Sequence record: NC_052655.1 | DNA length: 64,000 nucleotides | Origin: Escherichia phage alia | Reading direction: 5' to 3' (one strand) | Part shown: piece after piece, positions 4,878-52,540 of the stretch | How the letters are laid out: every line of letters starts with the position of its first letter | How positions within the stretch are numbered: position 1 is the stretch's first letter | The notes under the pieces: generated by a model | Told to the model about the DNA's origin: nothing | What the model saw: the letters and a program-made list of their open reading frames with translations, nothing else | Database searches by the model: none | Position numbers and translations under genes: made by a program

Positions 4878-4889
4878 TAGGAGGTTTAC

Positions 4890-22707: not shown

Positions 22708-22712
22708 CTAGA

Positions 22713-22851: not shown

Positions 22852-22871
22852 AGAAAAACAAAGAGGTACTT

Positions 22872-23021: not shown

Positions 23022-23263
23022 GAAAATTTTTAATAGGTATGTTCTGTACATATCCTGATAATAAAGTCAGTTCTACTAAAGTTTGGAATGCTATTGGTAT
23101 GATTGTTATGTCCAGTATGTTTATTTATTTGGGAATTGATAAAGAAATTCCTGAATGGATGGGCTGGGCTTTTGTTTTTATGATCACACCATCCAGACTA
23201 ATGAAGAATTTAATAGATTTACGTTGGGGCAGATCACCTGCCCCTGATAAGGAGGATAACTAA
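23018..23263 (+). CDS. small membrane protein (two predicted TM segments)
   Basis: 81 aa with hydrophobic stretches AIGMIVMSSMFIYLG and WMGWAFVFMITPS; coupled to the upstream small ORF and to the downstream gene (TAATG). Confidence 0.5.
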   Translation: MRKFLIGMFCTYPDNKVSSTKVWNAIGMIVMSSMFIYLGIDKEIPEWMGWAFVFMITPSRLMKNLIDLRWGRSPAPDKEDN

Positions 23264-31746: not shown

Positions 31747-34566
31747 ATGTATCCTATTCCTTTATTTATGTCAACAACATCAGCTTCAGTAGTAACAGCT
31801 ACATCTATAACTACTTCCTCTATTGGTATTGCAATAGTTGGTGGTAAAAAACAACTGACATACACAGTTACACCGGAAGATGGTGCATTATTTGATATAG
31901 CTTTTTCATCTTCAGATAATACCAAAATGGTTATAGATAATAGTGGTATGATGGAGTTTGTTGCCGAAGGTGGTTTTGATGCAATAATGACAGCTAAAAA
32001 TAATTTAGGTGCTGTCTTAACTGATCAATCTGGTGGTTATGCTTCAGAATTAAGTGTGTACACTGAAAGTCTATCGGCTATGGATGTAGGCACTACTCAA
32101 CAGTTGGTTGCTACAATCAGTCCAGAAGGTGCTAAAGACCTTCCAGATATGGTAATTACATACACCACAACAGATCCAGAAGTAGCTACTGTAAGCCCTA
32201 CAGGGTTAATAACTGCTCTTAAAGATGGCGGTTGCCGTATAGGTTGTACTGCAACGTATCAAGGAACAGTTGTGGCCTCTGATAGTTCTTATTTAGGTGT
32301 TAATGCTATTCCTGTTATTTCTAATGTAACAGCCGTGGCAAACAGCTATGGAGACGTTCGTGTTGCTTGGGATGTAGCTGATCCGCTAGACGGTGATACT
32401 TATACTGTAGAAGTATTAGATTTAAGTGATAATAGTGTCCAGTGGACTACAACAACCACGAATACTTACGCCTATTTTGATATCTCTGACTCTATTCCTC
32501 TTTATGGGTTTGCTCCAACATACCTTAAAATTAATGTTAAGAGCACCAAAGCAGCAGCCGTTATCTTTAATAACTCAATAGCTACAGATGATTCATTCAT
32601 TAAAGAAGTTATTGTCTTTGCTGGACAAGATAACGTAAATGCACACTTTACAGAACTATCTGGTGCAAATAAAGCAGCAATGGGTAGCACAACAGCCCGT
32701 AATGCATATGCTACGCAACGTGGTTTAGCAAATGCTGAAGTTCTTCCGTTAAATACAGCTTCTGGATCATCAGCAGCAGATAAATATGCTGACGATAAAG
32801 CTGGAACAGGTACACCAGATAACTACTGGTATGATCTGGATAACACAGCAGATGGGCCATGCTTAACTAACTTTATCACTAAAGTCACACCTTATGCAAG
32901 TAAGGTTAAAGCGATTATTTGGGGACAAGGTGAAAATGATGCTGTATCAGCATCTTCTACTGTTGCAGGTAGGTACAGTAACACTACACGTTACCATGAT
33001 GCTACGATAGCCATCTTTGATAAGATGCGTACAATAGTTCCTGCTTCTCAAGCAAAAATTGTTTGGCAGATCCTAGGACGTTCTTATTTATATGGTGTAG
33101 AAGTTAATGGTGTGGATTGGCAGAAGTACAGAAATGTACAAAGAACCATCTCTACAGCACGTGATGATGTTATCATTGGTTCTTGGGTAGATGGTGCTGA
33201 ACGTTACAGTGGTTATGTTTATGAAGAAGGTATTGATGGTCGTATCCATTATGTTTCTTCTGTATACCAAACAGCAGCTACAAAACTTGCTAAATCAGCA
33301 GCAGACGGTACAGACTTAACATCAACGTCACCTGTTTGGGTTGATATGGCTGTTCCAACTGGAGCAACAGCTACTTCCCAACCTAATCAAGATACAATTT
33401 TAGCATGGGATGCTCAAGGCTATAGTAAACACTACTTCCGTAATATTAACGTCTTAACTGCATCTGTATTAACTGAACAAACGCTTAATACGAACAGTTA
33501 TACGTTTACCTATGCAGATCAAGTAGAACAATATGGTTTTGCAGCAGGAACTACTATATTTGATGTTGCATATTATGACGAAGCAAATGATGTGTTATCT
33601 CCTTTAGTACGTTTTAATGTTAACGTTACAGCAGGAACCGTAGAAGATAAACCTGTCGTGATGGACTATGATTTGACGCAAGAAACTCTTCCATCAGATG
33701 TTAAGGTTAATGGTGGGAACTCTTTTGCTCGTGCTTCTGGAGATAAACTTGTAGCCACTAACACCTTGGTTGCTCCGTTGGAGTATGTTGGTACTACCCC
33801 TGTAGGTAGACGTGTAACAGCTAACACAGCTACACAAATTTTTGTCAACAACGCCTTAACAAGCGCAAGCCCGTGGATAAAGACCAAATTAACTGTTGCA
33901 GCTTCATCTGATAACTCTCCGGCTGGAACTACTGCTAATGTATTCAAATTAACTCCGACTACAACCTCTGGTAGTCATATCTTAACTGCAACATATACTA
34001 ACGCGTACAACATATCTGCCGGACGTAACTGGTCTGCCTCTGTTTTCTTGAAAGCGAACGGGATTACTAAGGCCAAACTAAGATTAAAAGCAGGAACTGA
34101 AGTTAATGAGGGTACTTTTGATTTAGCAGCAGGTACATTCACAGGAAGTGAAGCTAATATTATATCTATGGGCAACGGTTGGTATCGTGCTATTCTGCAT
34201 AAAACAGGGATAGCCAAACAGTCCTCCATAAGTTTTGAAATAATTGCCTTGGATGCAACTGGTGCGGAGATTTTCGCTGGAGATGGTACTAGTAACCTTG
34301 CAGTTTGGTTGCCACAGCTTGAAGGTGCTTCTACAGGAGAAACATCAAAAGCTGGATCGCCTTATGTCTGCATATATCCTGGAAATTTAGGAGGAGTATC
34401 CTTCACTATACCAAGGAACGGACATACTGGTGTGGATGTTTACTATTCCAACGGAGACGTTGTTCGTGACGTATTCTCTGGTACGGCATCTACTTGGACA
34501 ATAAACTACTCCAGCTTGTACGATTGGGGATCAGTCTTTATTACAGGTTTGAAATATTACGACTAA
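31747..34566 (+). CDS. tail fibre protein with Ig-like domains and SGNH/SASA-like esterase domain
   Basis: 939 aa; N-terminal bacterial Ig-like (BIG2-type) segments; motifs IVFAGQDNVNAHF and AIIWGQGENDA resemble the GQSN and W.QGE.. motifs of sialate O-acetylesterase-like SGNH hydrolases. Confidence 0.55.
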   Translation: MYPIPLFMSTTSASVVTATSITTSSIGIAIVGGKKQLTYTVTPEDGALFDIAFSSSDNTKMVIDNSGMMEFVAEGGFDAIMTAKNNLGAVLTDQSGGYASELSVYTESLSAMDVGTTQQLVATISPEGAKDLPDMVITYTTTDPEVATVSPTGLITALKDGGCRIGCTATYQGTVVASDSSYLGVNAIPVISNVTAVANSYGDVRVAWDVADPLDGDTYTVEVLDLSDNSVQWTTTTTNTYAYFDISDSIPLYGFAPTYLKINVKSTKAAAVIFNNSIATDDSFIKEVIVFAGQDNVNAHFTELSGANKAAMGSTTARNAYATQRGLANAEVLPLNTASGSSAADKYADDKAGTGTPDNYWYDLDNTADGPCLTNFITKVTPYASKVKAIIWGQGENDAVSASSTVAGRYSNTTRYHDATIAIFDKMRTIVPASQAKIVWQILGRSYLYGVEVNGVDWQKYRNVQRTISTARDDVIIGSWVDGAERYSGYVYEEGIDGRIHYVSSVYQTAATKLAKSAADGTDLTSTSPVWVDMAVPTGATATSQPNQDTILAWDAQGYSKHYFRNINVLTASVLTEQTLNTNSYTFTYADQVEQYGFAAGTTIFDVAYYDEANDVLSPLVRFNVNVTAGTVEDKPVVMDYDLTQETLPSDVKVNGGNSFARASGDKLVATNTLVAPLEYVGTTPVGRRVTANTATQIFVNNALTSASPWIKTKLTVAASSDNSPAGTTANVFKLTPTTTSGSHILTATYTNAYNISAGRNWSASVFLKANGITKAKLRLKAGTEVNEGTFDLAAGTFTGSEANIISMGNGWYRAILHKTGIAKQSSISFEIIALDATGAEIFAGDGTSNLAVWLPQLEGASTGETSKAGSPYVCIYPGNLGGVSFTIPRNGHTGVDVYYSNGDVVRDVFSGTASTWTINYSSLYDWGSVFITGLKYYD

Positions 34567-38413: not shown

Positions 38414-40993
38414 TCAGTGACAAGACGCCCATGAGTTACCAACATCGTAACCAGCAGTGAGAGGTACATTAAGATTGTAATACTCACCAGCTTTATTAAC
38501 AGCGATAGATGCTAATTCTCCAGCACGACTGTAGGCTGTAAACCAACCACCTTTCGGAGATTCATGTACGTTAGCCCAAATCTTGCCAGTACGTTTCTCT
38601 TCCTCTTCTTTCCAGGCATTAACTTTATCCAAACATTCTTTATCAATTTTCTTTTGTTCTTCTGGATCATCAACTTGAGTCCAACCTAAAGATTCTTTAG
38701 AGAACCATTTAAAATGCACTAGATCACGAGTAACTTCAAGCTGTGCTTCATCGTGATATGCAATCATTTGTTGAACGAATGACTTATTTTTCCAGTCATC
38801 AACAAAAAAGTCAACAGCTAATCCTTCTTCTTCGATAAGATCGTCGTAGATAACCATTGCTCTTTTTGCACAAATAACACCACCACTCTGGAACAGAGAG
38901 TTAAGTATTGCGTGTGCAGATCGTGTAGGTACTTTCCTACCATCAATACCAAGAATGTATTTCTTACCTGTTTTAACCCAAAAGTCATGCAGACGTTCTT
39001 TAAGAAGCGCAAGAGGTTTTGCAGCTTCCCAGAAAGCATCGTATACAAGCTGTCCTGTATACATATCACTACCTATAGTTTTTGCTACTTTTGCAGCTTG
39101 AGCACCATAAGTAATACCATACTTAACAGATTTAGCAGGGCTTCGTTCAAACTTACGACCAATAGTGTCAGAAATACGTCGAGCCATCATTGTATGAACA
39201 TCATTAGGTTTTTCCAATAATAGAGCATTACAATATTCGTGTGGTTCCTGCTCGTACCGCCAACAGTAGTGCGATTCTATTTTTGCCTCAAGAGAATCAA
39301 AGTCATAACCAATTTGGAAGTATTTTGGAACTTCTACACCAAATAAGTTACGCATTTCATATCCGTACAGAGATGTTACACGTGGGATATTTGCTACTAA
39401 CCTATGTTTCATACGAGACGTAGCTGCATCACACGTTGCAGCAGGAGTTGGTATACGACCATCAGCCCTTACTGCTGCCAGATAACCTTTATCGTAATCT
39501 TCTTCATCTTCTTCCCAATCAGCACCACCCCCTAGAATAGAGTTCCTACGGTGTTTATACGTAAGATACTGCACAATCTGCGTAGCATAAGGAAACTTTT
39601 CACCTAGTGCTTCCAAGTTAGGACAAATATCTTTCTCTTGCCCTTTTGTAAAGGAAGGGTTAGTAAGCACTTTAACACCACGACCTTTAGCTTTAGCAAT
39701 ACGATCTCTTAGTTTCCATTCCAAAGTTTCTGGTGTGCACTCCAGATGATCACATCTGTCCTGGCAAAAGTTAGATGCTAACGTTTGATCAACATAATCA
39801 CGAATAGCTTTCTCCATTTGTGCTTCATCTTTCTTAATCTTAGTGCCAGATTTAAGAGTGATATCTTTATCTTTATATTCAGATGGACTCCAACCTAAAC
39901 CAACTAACCAGTTTTTAATATGTGTAGTGTCGTCTAAAGTAGCAGGTACTGTAGGATCACAAATAGGTTCTTCTGCTGGAATAGGTAGTTTAAACTCTTT
40001 ACCTAGTGCAAATAACCACCAACCATCTTCTTTTTGTACAAGTTCACCAGAATGTTTCTCTGCAAACTTTATCATGTTACTTGAAGGTTCACCATTCTTT
40101 TTAAACTGTAGTTTAGGTGGAATGAATGATTTCAAATAACCTTTAGTAGCAGGTTTAGGAGGTAGCACAGGTTCTGCCTCTAAACGACATGCTTCCATTC
40201 GAGCATCCAGATCACGAATATTATCTTCTGCTTGTTTCATGTTGAAAGCAAAGCCACGGTGCTCTTGACGTGTAATAATATCAGCTACACGTTGTTCTAA
40301 GTTAAATGGTTCAGACCACTTATTATAATCACCCCACTCTTCCATCAAATAACGGAACACTGCGGTGTTAGCTTTGTTATCGTAAATACAGTAATACAGC
40401 ATATCTGCTGCAAATGTTTTAAATCTTTCAGTTTCAGGAATGTTTTTTCTAAAATCAATTTTAACATCCCCTCCAGCTTTCTTAGATAACTCTGCCAGAC
40501 TATGACCACCGAAGCGATCAGGGTTTAGTGTCTTACTTAAGATCATAGTATCACAAATTTCAATGTTACTATTACCCCAAGTATTGTACTTAATACTGTA
40601 GTTGAGTTTAAAAAATAATTTAATTGCCAGTAAGTCAAAGTTAATGATGTTATGTCCAACTACTTTGGTAATTTTATAGTTTGAATTACCTTTAAATTTA
40701 CCTGTTCCATTTACAAAATCAGGAAAATCTTTAAGAGGGAAATGGGTATATTCTAAATGCTCATATTCCTCCAGTCGGTATTCATACTTTCCGTCAGTCT
40801 CAACATACGGACGACCATCGAAAAGATATTTATCACCATCATGGAAAGCAATAATCTCTCCAGTATCATGACTTTCGCACACAATACAGTGCATTGCAAA
40901 ACTATCTTTTAAACGATATGGACTTGCCAAGTAATCTACACTTTCGTCATTAAGCAAGTTGTTACTTTCAATGTCGAAAGTAAAAGCTCCCAT
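38414..40993 (-). CDS. DNA polymerase, family A, with 3'-5' exonuclease domain
   Basis: 859 aa with AAGGAGGGAGA SD. Exo I motif FDIESNNL; motif A-like YDFDSLEAKIESHY; motif B KSVKYGITYGAQAAK; motif C YHDEAQLE. Confidence 0.85.
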   Translation of the reverse strand: MGAFTFDIESNNLLNDESVDYLASPYRLKDSFAMHCIVCESHDTGEIIAFHDGDKYLFDGRPYVETDGKYEYRLEEYEHLEYTHFPLKDFPDFVNGTGKFKGNSNYKITKVVGHNIINFDLLAIKLFFKLNYSIKYNTWGNSNIEICDTMILSKTLNPDRFGGHSLAELSKKAGGDVKIDFRKNIPETERFKTFAADMLYYCIYDNKANTAVFRYLMEEWGDYNKWSEPFNLEQRVADIITRQEHRGFAFNMKQAEDNIRDLDARMEACRLEAEPVLPPKPATKGYLKSFIPPKLQFKKNGEPSSNMIKFAEKHSGELVQKEDGWWLFALGKEFKLPIPAEEPICDPTVPATLDDTTHIKNWLVGLGWSPSEYKDKDITLKSGTKIKKDEAQMEKAIRDYVDQTLASNFCQDRCDHLECTPETLEWKLRDRIAKAKGRGVKVLTNPSFTKGQEKDICPNLEALGEKFPYATQIVQYLTYKHRRNSILGGGADWEEDEEDYDKGYLAAVRADGRIPTPAATCDAATSRMKHRLVANIPRVTSLYGYEMRNLFGVEVPKYFQIGYDFDSLEAKIESHYCWRYEQEPHEYCNALLLEKPNDVHTMMARRISDTIGRKFERSPAKSVKYGITYGAQAAKVAKTIGSDMYTGQLVYDAFWEAAKPLALLKERLHDFWVKTGKKYILGIDGRKVPTRSAHAILNSLFQSGGVICAKRAMVIYDDLIEEEGLAVDFFVDDWKNKSFVQQMIAYHDEAQLEVTRDLVHFKWFSKESLGWTQVDDPEEQKKIDKECLDKVNAWKEEEEKRTGKIWANVHESPKGGWFTAYSRAGELASIAVNKAGEYYNLNVPLTAGYDVGNSWASCH

Positions 40994-41489: not shown

Positions 41490-43262
41490 TTAATAAGAAC
41501 CAGCAGAAATATTTTCTGGGTTACTCGTGTATTGATCGTAATCGTGAAGTGTAGCTGTTTTAATCTCATAGAAGAAACTACCTGCTGCACCAGTCTCTGA
41601 GAACTCACGGTTCTTTAGAATGTAGCAATATGTGCGGTTACGTTCCATAGGATCTTCAGCTTGTTTATCACGCTCCAGCGCAATTGTGATACCAGCACCT
41701 TTAGCAAGGAAGCTACTACCCATTGCATCATCTTCTACAATATGTTCATTACTATTGTTAGAAGACTTTTTAACGTGTGAAATTACAACAATGGTTATTG
41801 CATACTCTTTCATAATGCGTTTGAGCCACGTCGCAAGTTCCTCTTGTTGTGACACGTCCATACCAGAAAGCAAGTCAGAATAAGGGTCGATAACAAGAAT
41901 GGTTACTCCGAAATAAATAATCATTTCCAGAACCTTCTCTTTAATCACATCTACGTTAGCTCCACGATCATCACAAACATAGAAACGTGGTGTTCCATCT
42001 TCTCGTTCGTAAAAATCACGAATCTTTTCTTCATTATCTTTTAAAATCTTTTCCTTCTCTTCTTTTGTTTTACGGTGAAGAGGGATGTGCAAGAATGAAG
42101 ACAGTAAGTTACGAGAATACTTCTTATACGTTGCCTCCAAAGATAAAATACCAAGAGTATGTTCTGGGTGTGCAAGAATAATGTGCTTCGTAATCTCGTT
42201 AACCAACAGTGTCTTACCAATACTTGTTTTTGCAAGTATAACAGTAATTTCTTCTTCTACCAAGCCTCCACCTAACATATTAGAAGCAACACGCATGAAT
42301 GGAGGAAGGGTGATCATTTTAGCTTCCAGGCATTCCAAGGCTGCTTCATACAGTACGTTAGAAGCGTAAACACCAGCAGGTGTGTACAGTTTAGCTTTGA
42401 AAAAGCGATCAATAAAATGATCAATTTTTCCTTCTACTAGTGCCTGGTTAGGATCTTTAACATCCGTTAGTTCCATCACGTAAACTTTATTACGTGGTAA
42501 GATTTTAACACATTTCTCAACTGCTGCACGTCCAGCTTCATCATTATCCATACATAGAACAATCTTTTTAAATTGATCTAAGAATTTATAACGATGTTGA
42601 AGCTGCTTATGCAGAGATGTTTCGCCACAAGTACCAGATACTACAGCAGGAACAGGATATTTACCACCCTTGTTATAATCTTTTAGCATCTGTGTTGCAG
42701 CCAGCATATCGTGTTCACCACCAACGATTAGAATAGTACCGCTGTGGTTACGATATTTAAACTCCCCAAAAAGATCACAATCCTTTCCTGTTTCACCGAT
42801 AGGATGTGAGAAATCTTTTGGATCGATACGTTGTTTATACCCAGCAATATTGTAATCTTTAGTTGTAGGGTATAGTGTTGAAATTACTTCGCCAGTAGCT
42901 TCATCGTACATATAACGTACACCGAAAGGCTTAGAGATATCTTCACGAATACCGCGATAACCTTTTGGATTAGTTCCAGTGCTGGCTTTTAGTTTATCAT
43001 GTACTTCTGGATTAAACTCACTACCCAAGATATCCTCCTCTTCAATTTCTTCGCCGTGTGCATTTAACCATTTTTGATCAGGGATAGTAAAGCCACAAGA
43101 AAAACAATGTGCGCCTCGATGGTCTTCATCGGCATCTAAGCCATATACCATCAAATTGTTTTGTGATCGATCACGCCCTCCTTTCATACAACGAGGACAC
43201 CCAGTATGTCCTTCTTGACTTAGATCAATGTTATACCCATATTTATTTACAACATAAGACAC
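41490..43262 (-). CDS. DNA primase-helicase (T7 gp4-like)
   Basis: 590 aa; GTG start after AGGAGA. N-terminal zinc-finger cysteines (CPRC...HCFSCGF), central primase region, C-terminal Walker A (AKTSIGKT) of a DnaB-like helicase. Confidence 0.8.
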   Translation of the reverse strand: MSYVVNKYGYNIDLSQEGHTGCPRCMKGGRDRSQNNLMVYGLDADEDHRGAHCFSCGFTIPDQKWLNAHGEEIEEEDILGSEFNPEVHDKLKASTGTNPKGYRGIREDISKPFGVRYMYDEATGEVISTLYPTTKDYNIAGYKQRIDPKDFSHPIGETGKDCDLFGEFKYRNHSGTILIVGGEHDMLAATQMLKDYNKGGKYPVPAVVSGTCGETSLHKQLQHRYKFLDQFKKIVLCMDNDEAGRAAVEKCVKILPRNKVYVMELTDVKDPNQALVEGKIDHFIDRFFKAKLYTPAGVYASNVLYEAALECLEAKMITLPPFMRVASNMLGGGLVEEEITVILAKTSIGKTLLVNEITKHIILAHPEHTLGILSLEATYKKYSRNLLSSFLHIPLHRKTKEEKEKILKDNEEKIRDFYEREDGTPRFYVCDDRGANVDVIKEKVLEMIIYFGVTILVIDPYSDLLSGMDVSQQEELATWLKRIMKEYAITIVVISHVKKSSNNSNEHIVEDDAMGSSFLAKGAGITIALERDKQAEDPMERNRTYCYILKNREFSETGAAGSFFYEIKTATLHDYDQYTSNPENISAGSY

Positions 43263-43274
43263 ATGATTCTCCTA

Positions 43275-43544
43275 CTAAAATGATTCGTTTGTCTCCATAA
43301 TATATTGCATTTCCAAATCTTCCATATGTTTCTTAAATTGGTAAACAATTTCCGATGGGGAAATATCTATATCAAAAAGTTCTTTTGTACCAGAATAAAA
43401 CCTAATACCATCAACAATAAGACCACCATAATAATCCCAATCACTTTCTCGTGAGAAAGGATTAGGTTCTTCATAATAGTAATCTACTTCAACAATAATA
43501 GGTTCTTTATTATCTTGTTTATACTCAAAATCAAAAGTGTTCAT
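43275..43544 (-). CDS. hypothetical protein
   Basis: 89 aa; start overlaps the upstream stop (TAATG). Confidence 0.5.
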   Translation of the reverse strand: MNTFDFEYKQDNKEPIIVEVDYYYEEPNPFSRESDWDYYGGLIVDGIRFYSGTKELFDIDISPSEIVYQFKKHMEDLEMQYIMETNESF

Positions 43545-44488
43545 TATAAATCCTCGATAAGCAGTCTGCGGGTTTCATTTAAATCATCAATATTGTAGTT
43601 ATCTCTTACATACTTAGCAAGAGCCAATCCTTTCTCAATACAAACATCAGGAGATTCGATTAAGTATTCTACAATATCTTTCCACTCTTTAACTGAATCA
43701 GCAAAGAAGATTAGATCTTTAAATTCTTCAGTATAATAGTTCTCTCGTGGCGAACAAACGAGTGGCAAACCTTTAGCACCAGCTTCAAGAATTTTTAAAT
43801 TACTTTTGGCATTATTAAAATGATTATTTACTAATGGAGCTATGGAGATTTGATGACCATCGTATGCTTCCATATAACACTCATAAGGACGAATACCTTC
43901 ATAAACACAATCTGGTTGAATATTTTCTTTAATTTGCAACCATTGAGCACTACTTAACTCTTCATGATCTCTACGAAATCCACATAAAGTTAAATCTTTA
44001 CCAAAATCAGGAAGAATTGCTAAATCATGTTTATGTGTTTCACTTCCCGCCCAAACCAGTGGACTTTTAGAATAACGGTCTTTCGTAAGAACAAACTGTC
44101 CTTCATCAAAAGGTAATCCGTTAGGCACAATATGTACATTATCATTGTATTGGCTTAATTCAACCTTTAATGCTGGAGTTGTTGTAGTTACAAGATCGCT
44201 TCTTTCAAGGAACCATTTTAGATCATCTCGGATTTGATTTTCAAATAATCCTTCAAGCATATGCCCTTCAGGAATAATTAAAGAATCATCCAGATCCATT
44301 ACCAATTTAAACCCAAGTTGTTTAAGAGCCAGGAAACCTGGCTTTCCACGTGTTGGTACTCCATTGAACACAAAAATATTATGCTTAGGATTAATGGTCA
44401 GTTTGCGTTTATATGGCAAAATGATCCTATGAAAATCACATACACTATACTTTTCATTTCCGCGTGTGTCAAGAATAATATTAGGCAT
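43544..44488 (-). CDS. glycosyltransferase (GT-B-like), paralog 1
   Basis: 314 aa; AAGGAG SD. Shares motifs PYDEGQFVLTKDR and YDGHQISIAPLVNNHFNNAKSNLKILEAGAKGLP with the adjacent paralog; the E....A.A.G.P segment resembles GT-B nucleotide-sugar-binding regions. Confidence 0.55.
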   Translation of the reverse strand: MPNIILDTRGNEKYSVCDFHRIILPYKRKLTINPKHNIFVFNGVPTRGKPGFLALKQLGFKLVMDLDDSLIIPEGHMLEGLFENQIRDDLKWFLERSDLVTTTTPALKVELSQYNDNVHIVPNGLPFDEGQFVLTKDRYSKSPLVWAGSETHKHDLAILPDFGKDLTLCGFRRDHEELSSAQWLQIKENIQPDCVYEGIRPYECYMEAYDGHQISIAPLVNNHFNNAKSNLKILEAGAKGLPLVCSPRENYYTEEFKDLIFFADSVKEWKDIVEYLIESPDVCIEKGLALAKYVRDNYNIDDLNETRRLLIEDL

Positions 44489-44499
44489 ATAACTCCTTG

Positions 44500-45474
44500 T
44501 TAAAGACTTTCAATAACTTGACGACGCAGTTCATTGGCATCTGCAAGATTATAATTAAGACGAACGTGTTCTGCAAGCATCATACCACGATCTTCTGTGT
44601 ATCTAGGGTTCCTCATTAGCTTGACAACTTCATAATGCCAAGATGCTTTAGAGTCTGCATAGATAACAGCCTTTGCATCTACCGGATTGAAGTACGGCAG
44701 CACAGGAGAACAGATAATAGGAAGACCCTTTGCACCTGCTTCCAAAATCTTCAAATTGCTTTTACAGTTGTTGAAGTCATTATCTACCAGGGGAGCAATT
44801 GCAATACTGTGACCGTCATACACAGACATATACTCACCTAAATTTTTAATAGCTGGTTTATACTGTGCATTTGGAATTTTACGTTTTATTTTAACCCACT
44901 CCGCAGTAGTTAGATACTGACTATTATTTCCAACAGGTGCAGAAGGATACACTTCATACCCTGCAATTGTCAATAGTGTATCATCAAATGTATTAGCTAC
45001 AAGAGATAAATCAGGCTCATGGCTTGCTCCTCCAGCCCAGATAATAGGTGTGTCAGAACTACGGTCTTTTGTCAAAGTAAATTGACCTTCGTCGTAAGGT
45101 AGTGCGTTTCTAATTACGACAACATTACGATTTAAATGACGAATTTTGTAAGCTAGGTATTCTGTTGTTACAGTAACAACATCTGCTAACTTAACCATCT
45201 CTACAATAGTCTTTGAATGATTAGTAAATACGCCAGCCATATAATGTTCAGGATTAAGTGAATAAAAATCATCTAAATCAACAATAATCTTAACACCTTG
45301 TGCCTTCAGGCGTTTAACCTCGTCTGCTCCACGAGAATACACTCTATTAAAAACTAAAACGTCTTTCTTAGGTTTAAACGTATTTCCAGCAAATGGCATT
45401 ACAATACGATGGTAATCACAACCACTGCCTAACTTATTATCACACTTAAGTACAGGAGTATTAGGATTTACCAT
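44500..45474 (-). CDS. glycosyltransferase (GT-B-like), paralog 2
   Basis: ATG at 45474 preceded by GAGGAGG; this start aligns with the paralog N-terminus (the track start at 45513 has no SD). Confidence 0.55.
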   Translation of the reverse strand: MVNPNTPVLKCDNKLGSGCDYHRIVMPFAGNTFKPKKDVLVFNRVYSRGADEVKRLKAQGVKIIVDLDDFYSLNPEHYMAGVFTNHSKTIVEMVKLADVVTVTTEYLAYKIRHLNRNVVVIRNALPYDEGQFTLTKDRSSDTPIIWAGGASHEPDLSLVANTFDDTLLTIAGYEVYPSAPVGNNSQYLTTAEWVKIKRKIPNAQYKPAIKNLGEYMSVYDGHSIAIAPLVDNDFNNCKSNLKILEAGAKGLPIICSPVLPYFNPVDAKAVIYADSKASWHYEVVKLMRNPRYTEDRGMMLAEHVRLNYNLADANELRRQVIESL

Positions 45475-46147
45475 ATTTTTGAGCCTCCTCATAAGAGATA
45501 AAAGTTTTACCATTGCGAAGATCCTCCAGGGATTGTTTATATTGTTCCCAGTTTACACCAATCCCCTGTTCTTTCTCTTCTTTTGACAGATTCGCAAAAG
45601 GTAAAGGATTGTCTCCAAATACATCATCAGGATGGATAAACGCCATAATTCGAATAGGACATGGCACGCCTTGAATACCTCGGTTCAAACCTGCCAGTGG
45701 AACGCGATGAATCCACTCTGCATCTTCATATCCATAACCGTGGGTGTATGAGCGGAAATAGCCAGCTTTCTCAATAACTGCACGGGAATACATACCAAAC
45801 TGGCACATACCTAGTTCCCAAATAACCACTTCCCCTTCAATACCTTTTACTTTATCTTTAAAGTATTCAGGCATACCAAAGAAATCCCAACCATTTTCCT
45901 TCGCCTGTTTTACAAAATATGTTTCCCAACCTTGAACAACAGGATAGCAATCATCATCAAAAATAAACCAGTAATCATACCCTTCATCATAAAACTTTTT
46001 CATCAGTTCATTACGAGCATATGCAACACCTTTTCGCTCCCGATCATACTGCACAACAAAAGTAGCATTAGGATCAGTCACAAGATAATCTTTAAGAGGA
46101 CGCTTACCTACAGTAATAACACCAACACCAATTTTTGTATTTTCCAA
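45461..46147 (-). CDS. glycosyltransferase (GT-A-like, DxD motif)
   Basis: 228 aa; TTG start after AAGGAG; DxD-containing FIFDDDCYP. Confidence 0.55.
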   Translation of the reverse strand: MENTKIGVGVITVGKRPLKDYLVTDPNATFVVQYDRERKGVAYARNELMKKFYDEGYDYWFIFDDDCYPVVQGWETYFVKQAKENGWDFFGMPEYFKDKVKGIEGEVVIWELGMCQFGMYSRAVIEKAGYFRSYTHGYGYEDAEWIHRVPLAGLNRGIQGVPCPIRIMAFIHPDDVFGDNPLPFANLSKEEKEQGIGVNWEQYKQSLEDLRNGKTFISYEEAQKYGKS

Positions 46148-46156
46148 AATAACTCC

Positions 46157-46720
46157 TTAAATAATTTTATTCATGTCTTGACAATGTAAAAGGTGTGAAA
46201 TAGCTTTTCTAGGATCATCATTACCTAAACGGTATGTGTGAAATAAATATAACCCACGTAGTAAACCTAGCCTTTTATTGTTAGCGTGCAATGCTTTAGA
46301 GAAAATTATATCAAACTGTATTGATCTTTCCTCAAAAGGGATTTCATTCCACAGACTCTTACGAAAGAGAAGAAAGAATCCTGCTAAGATAGCATCTGTA
46401 GGTACTTCCTCTATTGAGTTTCCCCATTCTAGATGTGCTCTTTTTGCAATCTCAATGTGGTGTAATATATTTGGATCTTCACTTCTTTCATTATTAAATA
46501 ATTGATATGTTGATCCCAATCTATTACAAGATGCACCAAGAACATCAAAATCAGGATTTGAACGGACTATTGATTCCAGCCAAGCAGGTTGTTCTGGAAG
46601 AAGAAACATTGTATCAATGTCTCTTAGGCAAATCCAACTATCTTCTGGTAAAACACTTATTGTGTCATTGATACCTTTTCCAATATCTCCAGAAAGATAG
46701 GGAGTTATGTGAAATATCAT
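46157..46720 (-). CDS. putative glycosyltransferase (GT-A-like)
   Basis: 187 aa; GGAGGGAG SD; LRDIDTMF DxD-like motif. Weaker assignment. Confidence 0.4.
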   Translation of the reverse strand: MIFHITPYLSGDIGKGINDTISVLPEDSWICLRDIDTMFLLPEQPAWLESIVRSNPDFDVLGASCNRLGSTYQLFNNERSEDPNILHHIEIAKRAHLEWGNSIEEVPTDAILAGFFLLFRKSLWNEIPFEERSIQFDIIFSKALHANNKRLGLLRGLYLFHTYRLGNDDPRKAISHLLHCQDMNKII

Positions 46721-46777
46721 ACTCCCTCCGTATTATTACTTTAGCATTTTTAGACTAAAAAGTCCAAATGGTTTTAC

Positions 46778-46972
46778 CTATTGATTACGTTTTGCGAGTT
46801 CCATTTGGATAGCTAAACTGTGATCTCGTGCTTCCATATACTCTTTATATGTTTCATTAAGATGATCACGACAAACATCACGCAGTTTAATCAGTTTATC
46901 TGTAGGGATACCACTAAGATCATCCCAAGATTTTACAACTTCACCAGTATCATTGATCCCAATGGTTTTCAT
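46778..46972 (-). CDS. hypothetical protein
   Basis: 64 aa with AAGGAGG SD. Confidence 0.5.
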   Translation of the reverse strand: MKTIGINDTGEVVKSWDDLSGIPTDKLIKLRDVCRDHLNETYKEYMEARDHSLAIQMELAKRNQ

Positions 46973-47180
46973 CTACAACCTCCTTAATTGCTACAGCACA
47001 GTTTTTGCAGATACACTGCCCTTTACCTTTAGAAATCTGGATGTAAGGTTCATTTTCATTTTCGCCCTTACGTGAGTCATATATTACAGAATTGAAGCAC
47101 ACAACGCAAATATTTTTTAAGATTGTATACTTATCAACTTTCTTTTTTGTTTTAAAGTTAACTTCAATAACATCAGCCAT
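46950..47180 (-). CDS. hypothetical zinc-ribbon protein
   Basis: ATG at 47180 overlaps the upstream stop (ATGA); two Cys pairs (CVVC ... CICKNC). The track start at 47228 is also possible. Confidence 0.45.
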   Translation of the reverse strand: MADVIEVNFKTKKKVDKYTILKNICVVCFNSVIYDSRKGENENEPYIQISKGKGQCICKNCAVAIKEVVDENHWDQ

Positions 47181-47458
47181 CAGTGTAACACTCCCAGTAT
47201 GTTGCTTTGTGACATAACCATAGAACATTCAACATTATCGTGACTACGTGAAAAACGTTCCCAAACATCTTCATCGACTCGTAAAGCTATACAAGGATAG
47301 ACGTTATCATTGATCATTTCAATTGAATAAACATCCACATTGTCTTCGTCTTCGATGAACATCATTGCAAACTGTTCTAAATGTTTCCTAATGTAATGTA
47401 CATCCTCTTCTGTAAGACCAATAACAAGATAACTTGCAACGATAACGCCATCTTTCAT
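47180..47458 (-). CDS. hypothetical protein
   Basis: 92 aa ORF. Confidence 0.5.
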   Translation of the reverse strand: MKDGVIVASYLVIGLTEEDVHYIRKHLEQFAMMFIEDEDNVDVYSIEMINDNVYPCIALRVDEDVWERFSRSHDNVECSMVMSQSNILGVLH

Positions 47459-47468
47459 CTATATCTCC

Positions 47469-47978
47469 TTAGCGATAGAATTGATGTTCTTTGTAGCGGT
47501 ACACTAGAACCATATCTTTTTCCCAGTGTGCTCTTATTGTAGATTTTTTAAAGTATAATGCTCCTTTTGTAATATCTAATGCAATTCGTAATTCTGGAAA
47601 ATGCGTATCGAGATAAAGTAGACGTTCTGCTATAGCCTTAGCTTCCTTCCACTTATCACGTTCCATAACGTTGAATGTCTTTGTGTAAGAGAATTGTCCT
47701 TTTTGAAACAAAACTTCTTTTATAGTATCAGGGAAATATGAATCTCTAGCCCTATTCAATACTACATTACCAACAGCAGACATACCGCGCTTTCCTTGAT
47801 TACGACTTTCTGCATAGATTGCACAAGCTAATAGATTTTCTTTACTATCACGCTTTGTACACTTGTGAACTACTTTAGCAGTTTTTACGTTTGCAGCTTC
47901 GGCTTGCGCCACGACAGGTGTAAATGTAAAAGCAGTTAAGGATAGTAACGCAATTGCGACAAAGGTTTTTATTGACAA
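47469..47978 (-). CDS. secreted cell-wall hydrolase (SleB-like), endolysin candidate with signal peptide
   Basis: TTG start 5 nt after AGGAGG. N-terminal signal peptide (MSIKTFVAIALLSLTAFTFTPVVAQA); motif CAIYAESRNQGKRGMSAVGNVVLNR resembles the SleB-type cell-wall hydrolase family. Confidence 0.6.
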   Translation of the reverse strand: MSIKTFVAIALLSLTAFTFTPVVAQAEAANVKTAKVVHKCTKRDSKENLLACAIYAESRNQGKRGMSAVGNVVLNRARDSYFPDTIKEVLFQKGQFSYTKTFNVMERDKWKEAKAIAERLLYLDTHFPELRIALDITKGALYFKKSTIRAHWEKDMVLVYRYKEHQFYR

Positions 47979-48071
47979 ACTTGCCTCCTATTTTGTTAAA
48001 CGAACTTTTATTGTAACACAGAAGAGGCTGTTTTGCAAGTGGAGGGGGGATAATCCCCCTCTTACACCCTG

Positions 48072-48674
48072 TTAGATGTTGTAAACCTTCGTATGAGTTA
48101 CTACACCATCTTCTACAAAATCAATACGTTCTTGATCCGTAACTAGTGCAGACAACACTTTAAATTTAATTGTTACACGTTCAAAAGCTGGTTGACCATC
48201 TTTAAGATAATTATGTTCAGTTGTTACTGTCTTGTTTACAAAATCAACTTTCGCTTTACCGTTTTCGCGCAAGTGGAATGTTTTTCCTGCTTTATACACA
48301 ATTTCAACATTACCTTCGAGAGTAATTCCTTCAAAAAGTTCGCCCTCTTCTTCATTTTCTTCACTTTTGAACAGACGACGAAACTCTTCCATATCAAGAT
48401 AAACAACATCTTCAGAATAACTATCAGTAAGGTATGTCTTACCATCCATTAACCCGAAATATTGCCAGATCGCAGAATAAACATCACTAGTTGATCCAAG
48501 GGTATCTCTGAGTTTAGTTCCACGGATTACTTCATAAACTTCAAAATTGAAACCAGACTGCAAAGCATTAAACAGTACATCACTAACTTCTAAAGCATAA
48601 TCTTCATTGTTGTCAATATCCACAAGAAAATTGCCGCTACGAATAAGTTTTTGACCTTCTAAAGTAATACTCAT
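48072..48674 (-). CDS. hypothetical protein
   Basis: 200 aa with GAGGAGAAA SD. Confidence 0.55.
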   Translation of the reverse strand: MSITLEGQKLIRSGNFLVDIDNNEDYALEVSDVLFNALQSGFNFEVYEVIRGTKLRDTLGSTSDVYSAIWQYFGLMDGKTYLTDSYSEDVVYLDMEEFRRLFKSEENEEEGELFEGITLEGNVEIVYKAGKTFHLRENGKAKVDFVNKTVTTEHNYLKDGQPAFERVTIKFKVLSALVTDQERIDFVEDGVVTHTKVYNI

Positions 48675-48702
48675 TGTTTTCTCCTCTTCTATTTAAAATA
48701 TG

Positions 48703-48718
48703 CGCCCCGAAGGGCGCT
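48703..48718 (-). terminator. intrinsic terminator after terD-like gene (UUCG loop on minus strand)
   Basis: GCGCCC-CGAA-GGGCGC on the plus strand; on the minus strand it is followed by TATTTTAAAT. Confidence 0.55.
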
Positions 48719-48726
48719 ATGATTTA

Positions 48727-49323
48727 TTACTCGAACCAATCGTCGCCAGCGCCAAACGCTTTAACTACATCATAAATGTCAAGTCCAGCTTTACCTACAC
48801 CATATGCTTTCAGTTTCCATTCGTTATCTTCCCGCACCAGGGAGGCAACGTGGCAAATGGTATTACCTGCAAGTTCTGGAGCCAAGAAGTCAAAGTCCAG
48901 CAGTTCAACGTTACGTTCATCATCGAAGATTTTAAGGAAACCTTCGGTAGCGTGACCAAGGCGTTTCTTACCCGTTTCGTCATCAATAGTAATTACGAAT
49001 GCAATTTCCTGTGCTTCAGCAGAGATATTATCCAGTGTAACATCAATCTGCTCCATTTGCCCTACACCGTCACGAACATCTTCACCTGCAAAAGTAGAAC
49101 GTTCAGGATCAAATTTCTGTGCGTAGCATACCAGGTGGCGAGGAGACAACAGTTCCGGCAGACCAGATGCATTGTGTCGGCAAATCAGAGCACTAACATC
49201 CAGATCCAGTTTTTCGTTAGATTTCCAAGAGAATTCCAGACGAATGCGTTTCAGTGCTGGTGCAATCTTTTTCAGAGAAACTTTTTCGCTAGAACCTTTT
49301 TTCAGGGAAATTTTCTGAGTCAT
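48727..49323 (-). CDS. terD: TerD-family protein
   Basis: 198 aa; AAGGAGG SD. Hallmarks KISLKKGSSEKVSLKK, LDLDVSALI, IAFVITIDD and NEWKLKAYGVGKAGL align with TerD as I recall it. Confidence 0.8.
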   Translation of the reverse strand: MTQKISLKKGSSEKVSLKKIAPALKRIRLEFSWKSNEKLDLDVSALICRHNASGLPELLSPRHLVCYAQKFDPERSTFAGEDVRDGVGQMEQIDVTLDNISAEAQEIAFVITIDDETGKKRLGHATEGFLKIFDDERNVELLDFDFLAPELAGNTICHVASLVREDNEWKLKAYGVGKAGLDIYDVVKAFGAGDDWFE

Positions 49324-49360
49324 AATTTATTACCTCCTTTGTTGTTAATTTACGTTGTCT

Positions 49361-49388
49361 ATTTTACTAATCTTTTCTACAAAGTCAA
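49361..49388 (-). promoter_or_regulatory. sigma70-like promoter candidate (minus strand) upstream of terD-like gene
   Basis: On the minus strand: TTGACT (plus 49383-49388), 16-nt spacer, TAAAAT (plus 49361-49366). Confidence 0.3.
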
Positions 49389-49395
49389 GCGTTTT

Positions 49396-50190
49396 TTACG
49401 CTTTTGCTCCAAATTTTTTAACCCACTCGCCAAACTCTTCAGATAGCAGTTTATCGTAAAGTTCTTCGTCAGACAAGGACAAATCTGCAATACCGATAAA
49501 ATCAACATTATCGTATTCTTTTGCCAAGTCTTTCAGGAATTTAAAGTTTGCATTACCTACACCGACCATAAACCAGTAAACAGGAGTGTTGCGGTGTTTG
49601 TTCAGCAAACTACGTACTGCTGAAGTATCCATGTTCTCCCCGTCAGTTTGGAAGAAAATCATTGCAGGAGTACGATCAACTTGTGCATCAGTATCTACAA
49701 CCTGTTCTATAACAGTACGTGTAACTTCTACAAGTTCTTTTTTACCAGTTAGTTTAGCAAGGAAACCCTTAGCCGGAACTTCTTCATACTCAACGACTTG
49801 GCGTGTAATATTTTTCATAGGTACACTACCGAAGTATGTATCATAGATCTCTTGCATTACTGGAGCATAAGCAGTACCACCATTGATGCAAACATTAGAC
49901 ATACAAGAGCCGACATAATCATCATATACATCAGCCGTTGCAGGAGGCAGTTCAAAAGAAGAACTATTGAAAGCCCACATGTCAATCTGTGCATTATCAT
50001 CAAACTTCATACCAAACGGCAGCAGCTTACCTACAAAATCACTAACAGTGCCATCACGATACAGCTCACACATACTACCCGAAATATCTAAGGCGCTTCC
50101 GACACGAAGAACAACATCGTTAATCTTTTTCTTACGCAGAGATACGGTAAGAGTTTCTTGACGTTTTTTAAGACTGATTTTATTGGACAT
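49396..50190 (-). CDS. von Willebrand factor A (vWA) domain protein (TerY-like)
   Basis: 264 aa; AAGGAGAAA SD. MIDAS-type motif DISGSM and downstream FFQTDGE; N-terminus has a TerD-like ISLKK motif. Confidence 0.65.
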   Translation of the reverse strand: MSNKISLKKRQETLTVSLRKKKINDVVLRVGSALDISGSMCELYRDGTVSDFVGKLLPFGMKFDDNAQIDMWAFNSSSFELPPATADVYDDYVGSCMSNVCINGGTAYAPVMQEIYDTYFGSVPMKNITRQVVEYEEVPAKGFLAKLTGKKELVEVTRTVIEQVVDTDAQVDRTPAMIFFQTDGENMDTSAVRSLLNKHRNTPVYWFMVGVGNANFKFLKDLAKEYDNVDFIGIADLSLSDEELYDKLLSEEFGEWVKKFGAKA

Positions 50191-50191
50191 A

Positions 50192-50461
50192 TTATTTCTC
50201 CTTTCTGAGTGTAATGTTAGTAACTTCTAAATCCACTTCTACCATTTCTGTATCATATGAAATACAGCTAAGTTGACCTCTTTGTGAACCGTTCAGACAC
50301 ATTGCTTGGTTTGTATTAACTTTAATAAACACTAAGTTTCTGAACGTATCTAAACCAGAATCTTGATACGCAACATAATATACAAATGTATCACCTGCAT
50401 CAAGTTCTCCAAAACATTTAGGTTCATCTGATTCGTCGTCTTTGATATTAAATTTAAGCAC
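50192..50461 (-). CDS. hypothetical protein
   Basis: 89 aa; GTG start after AAGGAGAAG; stop is 1 nt before the vWA start. Confidence 0.5.
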   Translation of the reverse strand: MLKFNIKDDESDEPKCFGELDAGDTFVYYVAYQDSGLDTFRNLVFIKVNTNQAMCLNGSQRGQLSCISYDTEMVEVDLEVTNITLRKEK

Positions 50462-51017
50462 TATCTTCTCCTTTACCTGCTCTCAAGCCTAAATAGAAAG
50501 CCTCTCTGGTGATCTTTTGCAACTCGTTTAAAGAGATAGTTACAACTAAATCATCTTCAATTTCTAGCTTTGAGTCTTCTTCTGTCTCAATGCAAGTATT
50601 ATGCACTTTGTGGTAAGGATTGTCAACACGTTTAAATTTATTATTTTCAGTGCTGAAGAAGCAATCTGGATCTTCTTCCCCATCACCCCAACCCTGGTTA
50701 GGATCTTCTTCAGATCTTTCTGTTGGGATCTCGCCTGTAAAGTGCTCTTCTAATACCAGAGCAATCCCATCTCCAAGATCGGAAGAGAACATCAAATTAC
50801 AAACTTCTTCCCAAGGCATAGACCACTTAAATCTTTTACGATTGCCATGTTTATCTTCTTCGTTAGAGAAAACACTACCATAGCTATCATAATTCCCATA
50901 CATCTCTTCGATAACCTTACCACCTTTCAAAAGAAATAGGTAGCAAGGAGAGCCATCGAAAGAGGTAGAAAGAGCAGCATTACCAGACTCTTTGCACAAG
51001 AAACTAAAACATCCCAT
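50454..51017 (-). CDS. hypothetical acidic protein
   Basis: 187 aa ORF coupled to its neighbours. Confidence 0.5.
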   Translation of the reverse strand: MGCFSFLCKESGNAALSTSFDGSPCYLFLLKGGKVIEEMYGNYDSYGSVFSNEEDKHGNRKRFKWSMPWEEVCNLMFSSDLGDGIALVLEEHFTGEIPTERSEEDPNQGWGDGEEDPDCFFSTENNKFKRVDNPYHKVHNTCIETEEDSKLEIEDDLVVTISLNELQKITREAFYLGLRAGKGEDSA

Positions 51018-51217
51018 TATACACCAGCCTTAAGATCAATTATAGCCAAAGTTGTTTCAGAGTGTGTTTGCTCGTCTACAGGTGCAGTCATATGATAATA
51101 CAAAAAGTCTTCGGCATCATACCAATCTGACTCTTGACCTTGTTTCCAACCATCAATGAAAGCATCTTCCATAATGGTTTGTAACTCTTCACGAGTTAAG
51201 TGAATATCTTTACTCAT
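51017..51217 (-). CDS. hypothetical protein
   Basis: 66 aa ORF coupled to its neighbours. Confidence 0.45.
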   Translation of the reverse strand: MSKDIHLTREELQTIMEDAFIDGWKQGQESDWYDAEDFLYYHMTAPVDEQTHSETTLAIIDLKAGV

Positions 51218-51450
51218 TACACATTCTCCTCTTTTACCAATTCCATCGTTGAACTATCAAAACCATCTTTAGAAGAATAGGTATAGACAGAACGTAGTTC
51301 TCGCAGGACAGTGAATACATTAGGATCATCTAACCAAGCATCCTGGAGGAGAACATAACGATCTTCATTGTCGTACTGGACGGCAATCATAGAACCAGAC
51401 AGTTTGTAAATTTTAATATTCATAATATATTTCTCCTTAAAGTAGACCAC
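51217..51450 (-). CDS. hypothetical protein
   Basis: 77 aa ORF coupled to its neighbours. Confidence 0.45.
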   Translation of the reverse strand: MVYFKEKYIMNIKIYKLSGSMIAVQYDNEDRYVLLQDAWLDDPNVFTVLRELRSVYTYSSKDGFDSSTMELVKEENV

Positions 51451-52540
51451 GTTTAACAGTTTGAATCATACCATCTTCAAGAGATTGTACTTCTTGGATG
51501 TAATCAATACGAGCAGCACGGGCTTCAGTATTGATTCGGTTAGTTTCTTCTAACATTTTAACTAAGTTTTCTTGATCGCGACGTAATGTTTCAATATCCA
51601 ATACTTGACGATTAGCAAGTTGTGTAGCTTCAATTTGGTTTTGTGCAGCCAGATCACTACCCATTGCAATAGCAGCATTAAATTCGTTCAGTACATTGTT
51701 CTGTGTATCTGCTGCTTTCTTCTGGCGTAGACTTTCAATATACATAGAAAAGTTTGCAGAGTAAGCAGGGATAACATTATTCACAATATTACGGGCTGAT
51801 CGCATCAAACTTGCAGATACTTTCTGCATACTTTGTACACGTGGCCCCATCTGAACACACAGTAAACGCAAGGCTTTCAGGTCTGCAATACGAATTTCAA
51901 GCAGATCCATAGTATCACGAGTACGTTGACGCTCTTCTACTTCATTTTCAGGTAGTGTATTAAGGCGAACTTCTTCTTTTTCATAAGTAGCTGTTAGAAG
52001 CTCTATATCCCTGTTTAAGCTAAGAGCATATTTTGCAATAGCCTCTTCTAAACGTTGCAGATATCGTAAAGAATCTTCTTCTTTTTTCAAGTCTGTTTGG
52101 AGTGTCTTTACCAAACCTTCAATACGATTATTGATGGTGTCAAATTCTCCAAACAAATCTTCTTTCATACCTAAAACTTTCTTAAATAGTTTACCTAAAC
52201 CTTTAGATTGTTTAATAGAATTAGGATCAAGTTGCTTTGCTTGCTTAATAAGTGCGGTTAAACGTTCACTCATTTCATCTCCCTGGGATGAACGCTGGTG
52301 TTTAAGCACTTCGGCATTAAGGTTACGAAGAGTAAGTCCTGCATCAGCACCAACTTGTTCAATCTCTTCACGAGACATTGGAGGCAGCATTTGTACAGGT
52401 CGTGCAACAGCAGGGGCATATACAGGGCTTGCATCCATAGCACTTGGAGCAAACAAAGACTTACTTTTTTCTGTTGTTGCCGTGAATACACTCATTTCAG
52501 ACGGTTTGCTTTTTACGGCACTGATAAAAGGACTGGACAT
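51437..52540 (-). CDS. TelA-like toxic-anion-resistance family protein (tentative)
   Basis: 367 aa, largely coiled-coil/helical; GGAGGAAA SD. Size, composition and adjacency to terD/terC-like genes suggest TelA/KlaA; no unique motif verified. Confidence 0.4.
   Translation of the reverse strand: MSSPFISAVKSKPSEMSVFTATTEKSKSLFAPSAMDASPVYAPAVARPVQMLPPMSREEIEQVGADAGLTLRNLNAEVLKHQRSSQGDEMSERLTALIKQAKQLDPNSIKQSKGLGKLFKKVLGMKEDLFGEFDTINNRIEGLVKTLQTDLKKEEDSLRYLQRLEEAIAKYALSLNRDIELLTATYEKEEVRLNTLPENEVEERQRTRDTMDLLEIRIADLKALRLLCVQMGPRVQSMQKVSASLMRSARNIVNNVIPAYSANFSMYIESLRQKKAADTQNNVLNEFNAAIAMGSDLAAQNQIEATQLANRQVLDIETLRRDQENLVKMLEETNRINTEARAARIDYIQEVQSLEDGMIQTVKRGLL

Follow-up and report, generated by a model that had tools for sequence, protein, structure and literature searches.

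What do the glycosyltransferases (GTs) encoded beside the replication genes of Escherichia phage alia modify? The window analysed here, a 64,000-nt stretch of sequence record NC_052655.1, carries on its minus strand a cassette of four GT genes (43544–46720), for which an earlier note, made from the sequence alone, leaned towards modification of phage DNA with evasion of restriction, while leaving the acceptor open. We concur that the acceptor is not established; glycosylation of DNA with restriction evasion is not supported by the data below, and we tentatively favour the view that the cassette builds up, step by step, a rhamnose-containing glycan on phage proteins, those of the virion or others, a reading that we consider possible. 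The genes, their annotation as GTs and the DNA hypothesis together with its conflict with restriction–modification (RM) data were already known. New here are the corrected orientation of the cassette, the polarity of a duplication within it, its near-perfect co-occurrence with rhamnose biosynthesis (rml) genes, and the occurrence of the module in morphogenesis operons or next to adhesins elsewhere.

Gene order and enzyme classes of the cassette

The phage of the window is a phi92-like coliphage (Justusliebigvirus, subfamily Stephanstirmvirinae). Positions 43200–46800 are 99.0–99.3% identical to Escherichia phages outra, ESCO8 and phi92 and to ~50 other Justusliebigvirus genomes, and phi92 58783–122952 is collinear with the whole window, in which plus-strand structural genes extend to ~36 kb and are followed by a long minus-strand string of early/middle genes. 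The list of open reading frames (ORFs) bore out four GT genes in this string, all on the minus strand. In order of transcription, they encode a 187-residue DxD protein that is a minimal GT2-like GT-A candidate (46157–46720; ortholog of phi92 gp166; PHROG 14179, E = 5e-113), a 228-residue GT-A-fold enzyme, probably inverting and GT2/GT7/GT27-like (45461–46147; gp165), and two GT4-like GT-B proteins of 324 residues (44500–45474; gp164; PHROG 7162, E = 6e-149) and 314 residues (43544–44488; gp163). An 89-residue ORF that is not a GT (43275–43544; phi92 gp162; PHROG 4240) separates the cassette from the primase-helicase gene (41490–43262; Pfam Toprim_2 and DnaB_C), and the gene of the family-A DNA polymerase (40993 to 38414) is transcribed later still, all of them on the same strand. 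The cluster had been described as lying downstream of the primase-helicase; as these are minus-strand genes, it is transcriptionally upstream of it. From the gp166-like gene to the 89-residue ORF, successive genes are spaced by 9 nt, a 14-nt overlap, 11 nt and a 1-nt overlap, the 14-nt overlap being that of the start of the gp164-like gene with the gp165-like gene, where a GAGGAGG ribosome-binding site precedes the ATG at 45474. A terminator scan revealed no terminator-like hairpin on the minus strand between ~48700 and 41080. Such tight spacing and the lack of an internal terminator fit one operon; the scan for sigma-70 promoters and terminators yielded no enrichment with respect to shuffled sequences and was uninformative on expression timing. 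The cluster itself is already in databases: the phi92 annotation has labelled gp166, gp165, gp164 and gp163 as glycosyltransferases from fold predictions since 2012, and the records of the BASEL phages name the four genes "putative glycosyltransferase" (two) and "putative disaccharide synthase" (two).

The tandem paralogy that the earlier note had recognised in the GT-B genes held, since the gp163-like and gp164-like proteins are 41% identical end to end (E = 8e-82). The pair displays the two-Rossmann-domain fold of the GT4-like retaining GT-B class. The gp163-like protein reaches Pfam PF13524 at 26.8 bits (threshold 25), and its 41%-identical gp164-like paralog scores 14.4–17.9 bits in the Pfam Glyco_trans_1 clan, below threshold. 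R21, D67, D68, H152, D155, K228, S229, K232, E235 and other residues are invariant in 39 family members, both paralogs included, and K228/S229/K232/E235 appear to map onto the donor-binding motif of the EX7E region; because the family-invariant residues are retained in both copies, both are probably active. Every single-copy homolog is closer to the gp164-like than to the gp163-like protein (66% identity to the gp164-like protein in the Klebsiella phage KP2025, 52% in the uncultured phage L009, 44% in Burkholderia dolosa and 37% at locus L022). By these comparisons, the gp164-like gene is the apparent ancestral-like copy and the gp163-like gene the diverged duplicate. Among 1.84 billion proteins, 126 representative clusters fall into the gp164 subfamily at E ≤ 1e-30. 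Two long members of the GT-B family (P0192 and P0232) are fusions of tetratricopeptide repeats (TPR) to a GT, a domain arrangement characteristic of enzymes that glycosylate proteins.

Between the two GT-A-like proteins there is no relationship, as evidenced by a family hhalign probability of 1.3%. The gp165-like protein carries invariant FDDD and YGxED motifs, and its predicted structure (pLDDT 89.6) adopts a GT-A fold with a DxD motif. This model resembles inverting enzymes of the GT2/GT27/GT7 type, including RmlT, which uses deoxythymidine diphosphate (dTDP)-rhamnose, the dTDP-binding SpsA, and TarP/TarS; a Foldseek comparison with viral predicted structures returned generic GT-A matches only. 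Alignment of 30 homologs of the gp166-like protein uncovered an invariant D34-x-D36, a GT2-like AGxFxLFRKxxW segment and further invariant positions (N66-R67, H88, W124, E131, D137, H161, Y163-R164 and H176). No match to this protein was found in Pfam, PDB or NCBIfam, and weak Glyco_tranf_2_5/2_3 matches occur in 3 of the 30 homologs. Its assignment as GT-A, which draws on PHROG 14179, the motifs, the gene context and these weak GT2-type matches of homologs, is the weakest of the four. Searches with each protein and with the family profiles against all PDB chains gave only marginal tails of TreT, PglA and b4GalT7 (none for gp166), and NCBIfam and PADLOC scans of the cassette proteins gave no matches. 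At the level of structure, the neighbours of the cassette enzymes are generic GT4 and GT2/GT27/GT7 enzymes of polysaccharide or protein glycosylation.

A companion deoxysugar pathway and the gene neighbourhoods of relatives

The phi92 genome contains a complete rmlA/B/C/D-like operon at 24.5–27.8 kb, ~77 kb from the cassette and outside the window. A tblastn search with phi92 RmlD retrieved 155 phage records and the GT-B search 142, and the RmlD, GT-B and gp165 searches each recovered 105 "Escherichia", 3 Justusliebigvirus, 3 Phapecoctavirus and 5 mislabelled "Campylobacter" records; the Klebsiella phage phi1_175008, which has two of the GTs, was also among the RmlD matches. Co-occurrence of the cassette and the rml genes is near-perfect. 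Furthermore, in three uncultured large phages (L009, L028 and L029) a gene for an NAD-dependent sugar 4,6-dehydratase/epimerase resides inside the cassette itself. The Phapecoctavirus ESCO37 retains the GTs without rmlA and rmlB, so the first two steps of the rhamnose pathway can presumably be supplied by the host. From the rml co-occurrence and the dehydratase embedded in the cassettes of relatives we infer that the donor of the GTs is a 6-deoxyhexose made by the phage, dTDP-L-rhamnose being the simplest candidate, and this is the strongest functional deduction that the data afford. Four GTs and a dedicated deoxysugar pathway would imply an oligosaccharide rather than a single sugar.

The four-gene cassette occupies the same site in Justusliebigvirus (95–100% identity) and Phapecoctavirus (~76–77%). 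In one group of Klebsiella Stephanstirmvirinae, that site holds just two GT genes, a gp166-like and a single gp164-like one, and L009, L028 and L029 combine a gp166-like gene, the dehydratase/epimerase gene, a gp165-like gene, one GT-B gene and a small ORF with the primase-helicase and PolA genes. Given this distribution, the GT-B duplication is specific to the ancestor of Justusliebigvirus and Phapecoctavirus. GT searches returned no matches in Vequintavirus (rV5) or in Seunavirus, the PVP-SE1 type. Among the genes around the cassette, only the flanking gp162 and gp167 have homologs in PVP-SE1 according to the phi92 annotation. The homolog of gp162 (PVP-SE1 gp008) indicates that this 89-residue ORF belongs to the backbone of the replication module; its counterparts at this position are 49% identical (KP2025) and weakly similar (L009). 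Three records labelled as Campylobacter phages A145, A110a and A150 (MG065645, MG065689 and MG065639; host C. jejuni) are ~98–99% identical across the cassette and include rml genes; these are probably host mislabels or contaminating coliphages.

The cassette had also been described as embedded in the replication block. Its co-orientation with the replication genes stands for this phage, whereas the placement is not conserved, as a homologous pair of GT-A and GT-B genes lies upstream of terminase, portal and capsid genes in other phages. At L022, a gp165-like and a gp164-like gene directly precede those for the terminase small and large subunits, portal, MuF, protease and capsid, and are divergent from the replication genes. 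A GT-B gene directly follows the terminase large-subunit gene at L025; GT-B, hexapeptide acyltransferase (acetyltransferase) and GT2 genes lie upstream of terminase at L023; and the Streptomyces phages KimJongPhill and Zuko have a GT-B, a UDP-glucose dehydrogenase and a methyltransferase gene just before terminase. Between terminase and portal, L014 carries a gp166-like gene, a GT2 gene, a polysaccharide deacetylase gene and two Methyltransf_24 genes. Another gp166 homolog (L015) belongs to a large cassette with GT-D-like, TOD1-like, DegT and epimerase genes, and a similar multi-GT cassette (L024) includes a radical-SAM enzyme and an aminotransferase. These arrangements suggest that the gp165-like/gp164-like pair is a mobile module whose site beside replication genes is lineage-specific. 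The association of late or structural genes with sugar-tailoring enzymes in relatives is, by analogy, the pattern expected of virion glycosylation cassettes. Taken as a whole, the comparative context points to proteins rather than DNA as the acceptor. Two bacterial loci were also recovered as possible adhesin-glycosylation loci. In B. dolosa (L008; JAIMDN010000082.1, 3025–8440) the GT-B homolog (44%) is located beside an inverse autotransporter (IAT_beta/Big_1/Invasin_D3) and a 571-residue protein, and in L027 (JGI Ga0596927_0001480, 100–5501) a homolog (~35%) is near a pertactin-type autotransporter and further GT4/GT2 genes.

Candidate acceptors of the glycan

Addition of rhamnose or another sugar to modified phage bases, as a means of evading nucleases, is a published hypothesis for these phages; Olsen et al. 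2020 (PMC7552041) suggested that they might rhamnosylate hydroxymethylated nucleotides. The cassette is adjacent to, and co-transcribed with, the primase-helicase and DNA polymerase genes, much as b-gt and gene 42 of T4 adjoin gene 43, and T-even phages likewise encode GT-B enzymes, a fold class common to both systems, beside DNA replication genes. However, the earlier note was right that the window holds no hydroxymethylase, and this extends to the whole genome of the ~99% identical phi92. Single-sequence phmmer --max searches with T4 gp42 and beta-gt found no homolog among the six-frame ORFs of at least 60 residues of phi92 (148.6 kb) and the window (best E = 2.6 and 0.82, respectively), no thymidylate-synthase-like (ThyA-like) or TET/JBP gene is annotated in phi92, and a Pfam scan of the six ORFs in and flanking the cassette (43275–48674) identified a SleB-like hydrolase only, with nothing TET/JBP-like beside the GTs. 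Structural comparison with the T4 glucosyltransferases, which the note had recommended, showed no special similarity, with alpha-gt ranking 16th and beta-gt 27th among the structural neighbours, outranked by generic GT4 enzymes. The gp165-like protein does resemble the TET-associated glycosyltransferases (TAGT, PF20691) of phages that hypermodify 5-hydroxymethylcytosine, but its match is confined to residues 16–79 and scores 24.1 bits, below the gathering threshold of 27.5. In its family, 15 of 17 members match TAGT, all weakly and in the nucleotide-binding/DxD region, and GT2 (10/17) and Glyco_transf_7C (9/17) match about equally well. The cassette further differs from the T-even system in having four GTs, two of them GT-A, in lacking phmmer similarity to beta-gt (alpha-gt was compared by fold only), in an implied dTDP-rhamnose rather than UDP-glucose donor, and in the absence of restriction resistance. 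Indeed, the phi92-like phages Bas60–62 are "exceptionally susceptible" to type I–III RM systems in vivo "despite a putative dTDP glycosylation machinery" (Maffei et al. 2021, PMC8594841). Several DNA methyltransferases are encoded by phi92-like phages instead, and we found no published report of rhamnosylated phage DNA. Restriction sensitivity and resemblance to polysaccharide-type GTs, the outcomes that the earlier note had named as contrary to its proposal, are essentially what was found, and we regard DNA glycosylation as very unlikely. A variant in which the rml-fed cassette places a rhamnose-containing glycan on DNA sparsely or sequence-specifically, with no need for a hydroxymethyl-pyrimidine precursor, would explain both the placement by the primase-helicase and polymerase genes that is conserved in this lineage and the sensitivity to the RM systems tested; we deem it highly improbable.

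Remodelling of host-envelope glycans would have the soluble GTs work from the cytoplasmic face, on the lipopolysaccharide (LPS) core or on lipid-linked intermediates, the glycans concerned being enterobacterial common antigen (ECA), the NGR glycan, the O-unit or the core. The surface of the infected cell would be altered, for instance so that its receptors are hidden from superinfecting phages or progeny no longer adsorb to debris. The best structural matches of the GT-B proteins include enzymes with undecaprenyl-diphosphate-linked or lipid acceptors (PglA, PglH, PimA, WaaG, WbnH and TarM), and the gp165-like protein resembles wall- or polysaccharide-type GT2 enzymes (RmlT, TarP/TarS and SpsA); early/middle expression would leave time for a surface change, and phi92-like phages need surface glycans (ECA/NGR and LPS core) for entry. 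Against this, a fixed cassette with its own rml operon is found in phages that infect a very wide range of hosts, regardless of O-type and genus, and homologous modules sit elsewhere in late packaging or structural operons, too late for surface remodelling. No flippase, polymerase, membrane GT or transmembrane segment accompanies the cassette. The four proteins lack membrane spans (maximum Kyte–Doolittle 19-residue means of 0.83–1.21), and with them the membrane-embedded GT segments of Gtr-type seroconversion systems (GtrA/GtrB/GtrC), and gave no Gtr-like Pfam matches. We found no precedent in lytic coliphages and consider envelope remodelling unlikely. A small-molecule or host cytosolic protein target, be it a disaccharide or osmolyte, a nucleoside-like metabolite tied to the neighbouring Ter, phosphoribosyltransferase and HAD genes, or a host factor or defence signal to be inactivated, fits the solubility of the products, the placement of the genes among early genes, and the presence of TerD, vWA-TerF, TelA, phosphoribosyltransferase and HAD genes in the same gene string. 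Nonetheless, four GTs of three unrelated types plus rml genes seem excessive for a disaccharide, the fold-level similarity to GT4 enzymes does not predict the acceptor, and neither PADLOC nor NCBIfam supplied a match. Moreover, the phi92 annotation notes PVP-SE1 similarities for some genes of the region, while no GT homologs were found in Seunavirus or Vequintavirus, which argues against an obligate link of the cassette to its neighbours. We judge a target of this kind quite unlikely.

Glycosylation of phage proteins is the reading that we favour, tentatively. Hints of a protein acceptor are the two bacterial GT-B homologs by autotransporter genes, the TPR–GT fusions, the GT-D-like gene of L015 and the relation of the gp165-like protein to a Cluster F GT. 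Soluble GTs made from the same transcript as the replication genes would accumulate in the cytoplasm, where dTDP-L-rhamnose would be provided by the phage rml enzymes, or by host RmlA/B-type together with phage RmlC/D enzymes, and host UDP-sugars would probably contribute as donors too. An initiating enzyme may place the first sugar on Ser/Thr of a phage-encoded, probably virion, protein and the other three may extend it, with one glycan, of about four residues at most, or two distinct short glycans as the product; the second GT-B copy would add a step missing in the two-GT Klebsiella phages. The outcome would be a glycan coat analogous to that of Cluster F mycobacteriophages, among which capsid glycosylation is documented for Che8 in Freeman 2023, as that work is cited in PMC11256854. 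In both systems, a phage operon encodes several soluble GTs, GT2-like GT-A proteins among them. The gp165-like protein is related to the first GT of the Cluster F cassette, Boomer gp102 (E = 1e-13; 351 Mycobacterium phage matches), and distant gp166 and gp164 homologs occur with the Methyltransf_24 family, the one fused to GT2 in Che8 gp108. Unlike the Che8-type cassette, the present one has a GT4-like GT-B pair and no sugar O-methyltransferase (Methyltransf_24/TylF), lies in the early/replication string of a lytic Gram-negative myophage, and is paired with phage rml genes. Other likenesses are more general. Cytoplasmic O-glycosylation of serine-rich adhesins by the GT4-type GtfA/GtfB and SdgB is similar at the level of fold and architecture only; serine-rich-repeat substrates and accessory Sec genes are absent here, and both paralogs keep the invariant residues, unlike the non-catalytic GtfB. 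To the capsid glycosylation machinery of chloroviruses and giant viruses (for example PBCV-1 A064R, with rhamnosyltransferase domains), which operates in a eukaryotic host and with a different architecture, there is only generic GT-A similarity.

Several observations weigh against a protein acceptor. The cassette is transcribed with early/middle replication genes and not with late ones, which fits DNA or host targets at least as well, and the Pfam scan detected no methyltransferase or other tailoring gene in or beside it. BLASTP comparisons of the four proteins with Che8 gp108–110 gave E > 1 for all pairs. The neighbourhoods of homologs of 30–37% identity are weak evidence for acceptor specificity. 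Our search of the literature found no published report of glycosylated phi92-type virions. As to the acceptor itself, the Ser-rich C-terminal tail of the tail sheath (window 7057–8463, '...NRTANSQNSNSSTVSS') was rejected as it does not track with the GTs, being absent in the four-GT phage ESCO13 and having similar counterparts in rV5 and Seunavirus, which gave no GT matches.

No published functional study of these four genes was found either; the E. coli myophage JEP7, for which an absence of glycoprotein staining has been reported, could not be connected with the present phage group. In the 939-residue lateral tail-fibre protein (window 31747–34566, plus strand), a Big_2 Ig-like domain is preceded by a strikingly Ser/Thr-rich N-terminus, MSTTSASVVTATSITTSSIG (12 S/T in 20 residues). 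Since bacteria encode GT-B homologs next to Ig-domain adhesins, this stretch could conceivably be O-glycosylated.

Coliphages of the phi92-like and phAPEC8-like groups have a broad host range, are isolated time and again and are used in therapy cocktails. A rhamnose glycan built by the phage on their virions would represent the first system of virion glycosylation to be described outside actinobacteriophages and the first glycosylated coliphage, and would bear on how antibodies recognise therapeutic phages, on how stable these are in serum and on their pharmacokinetics. The published, unsupported idea of DNA glycosylation in these phages, which conflicts with their restriction sensitivity, would be settled as well.

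Further features of the surrounding region

Upstream of the GT operon, the minus strand carries a Ter-type "stress" set (window 48727–52540) consisting of TerD (48727–49323), a vWA-TerF-like protein (49396–50190) and TelA (51437–52540), which continues in phi92 (107.4–116.7 kb) and EmilieFrey with genes for a TerC-like membrane protein, a macrodomain, a phosphoribosyltransferase and HAD proteins. The same TelA/vWA/TerD/phosphoribosyltransferase set precedes the GT cassette of the uncultured phage L029. Between the Ter genes and the cassette, within the early/replication string and away from the lysis genes, lies the SleB-like cell-wall hydrolase gene (47469–47978, minus strand; Pfam Hydrolase_2, E = 6.5e-20), whose product has a signal-peptide-like N-terminus and is annotated as endolysin in phi92.

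Comparison with phi92 uncovered further differences in the window. The DNA polymerase gene spans 2580 nt versus 3315 nt in phi92, owing to a segment of ~730 bp that is absent here (window 39263–39265 versus phi92 97186–97919), which suggests that the extra phi92 segment may be a mobile insertion, an intein or a homing element. The tailspike region, which in phi92 holds the endosialidase gene, and part of a lateral tail-fibre gene are replaced or divergent (window 21111–23023 and 33603–34553). Outside the window, phi92 48179–50877 encodes a ribose-phosphate pyrophosphokinase and an adjacent nicotinamide phosphoribosyltransferase beside a tRNA cluster, a pair that we take to resemble phage NAD+ reconstitution pathways.

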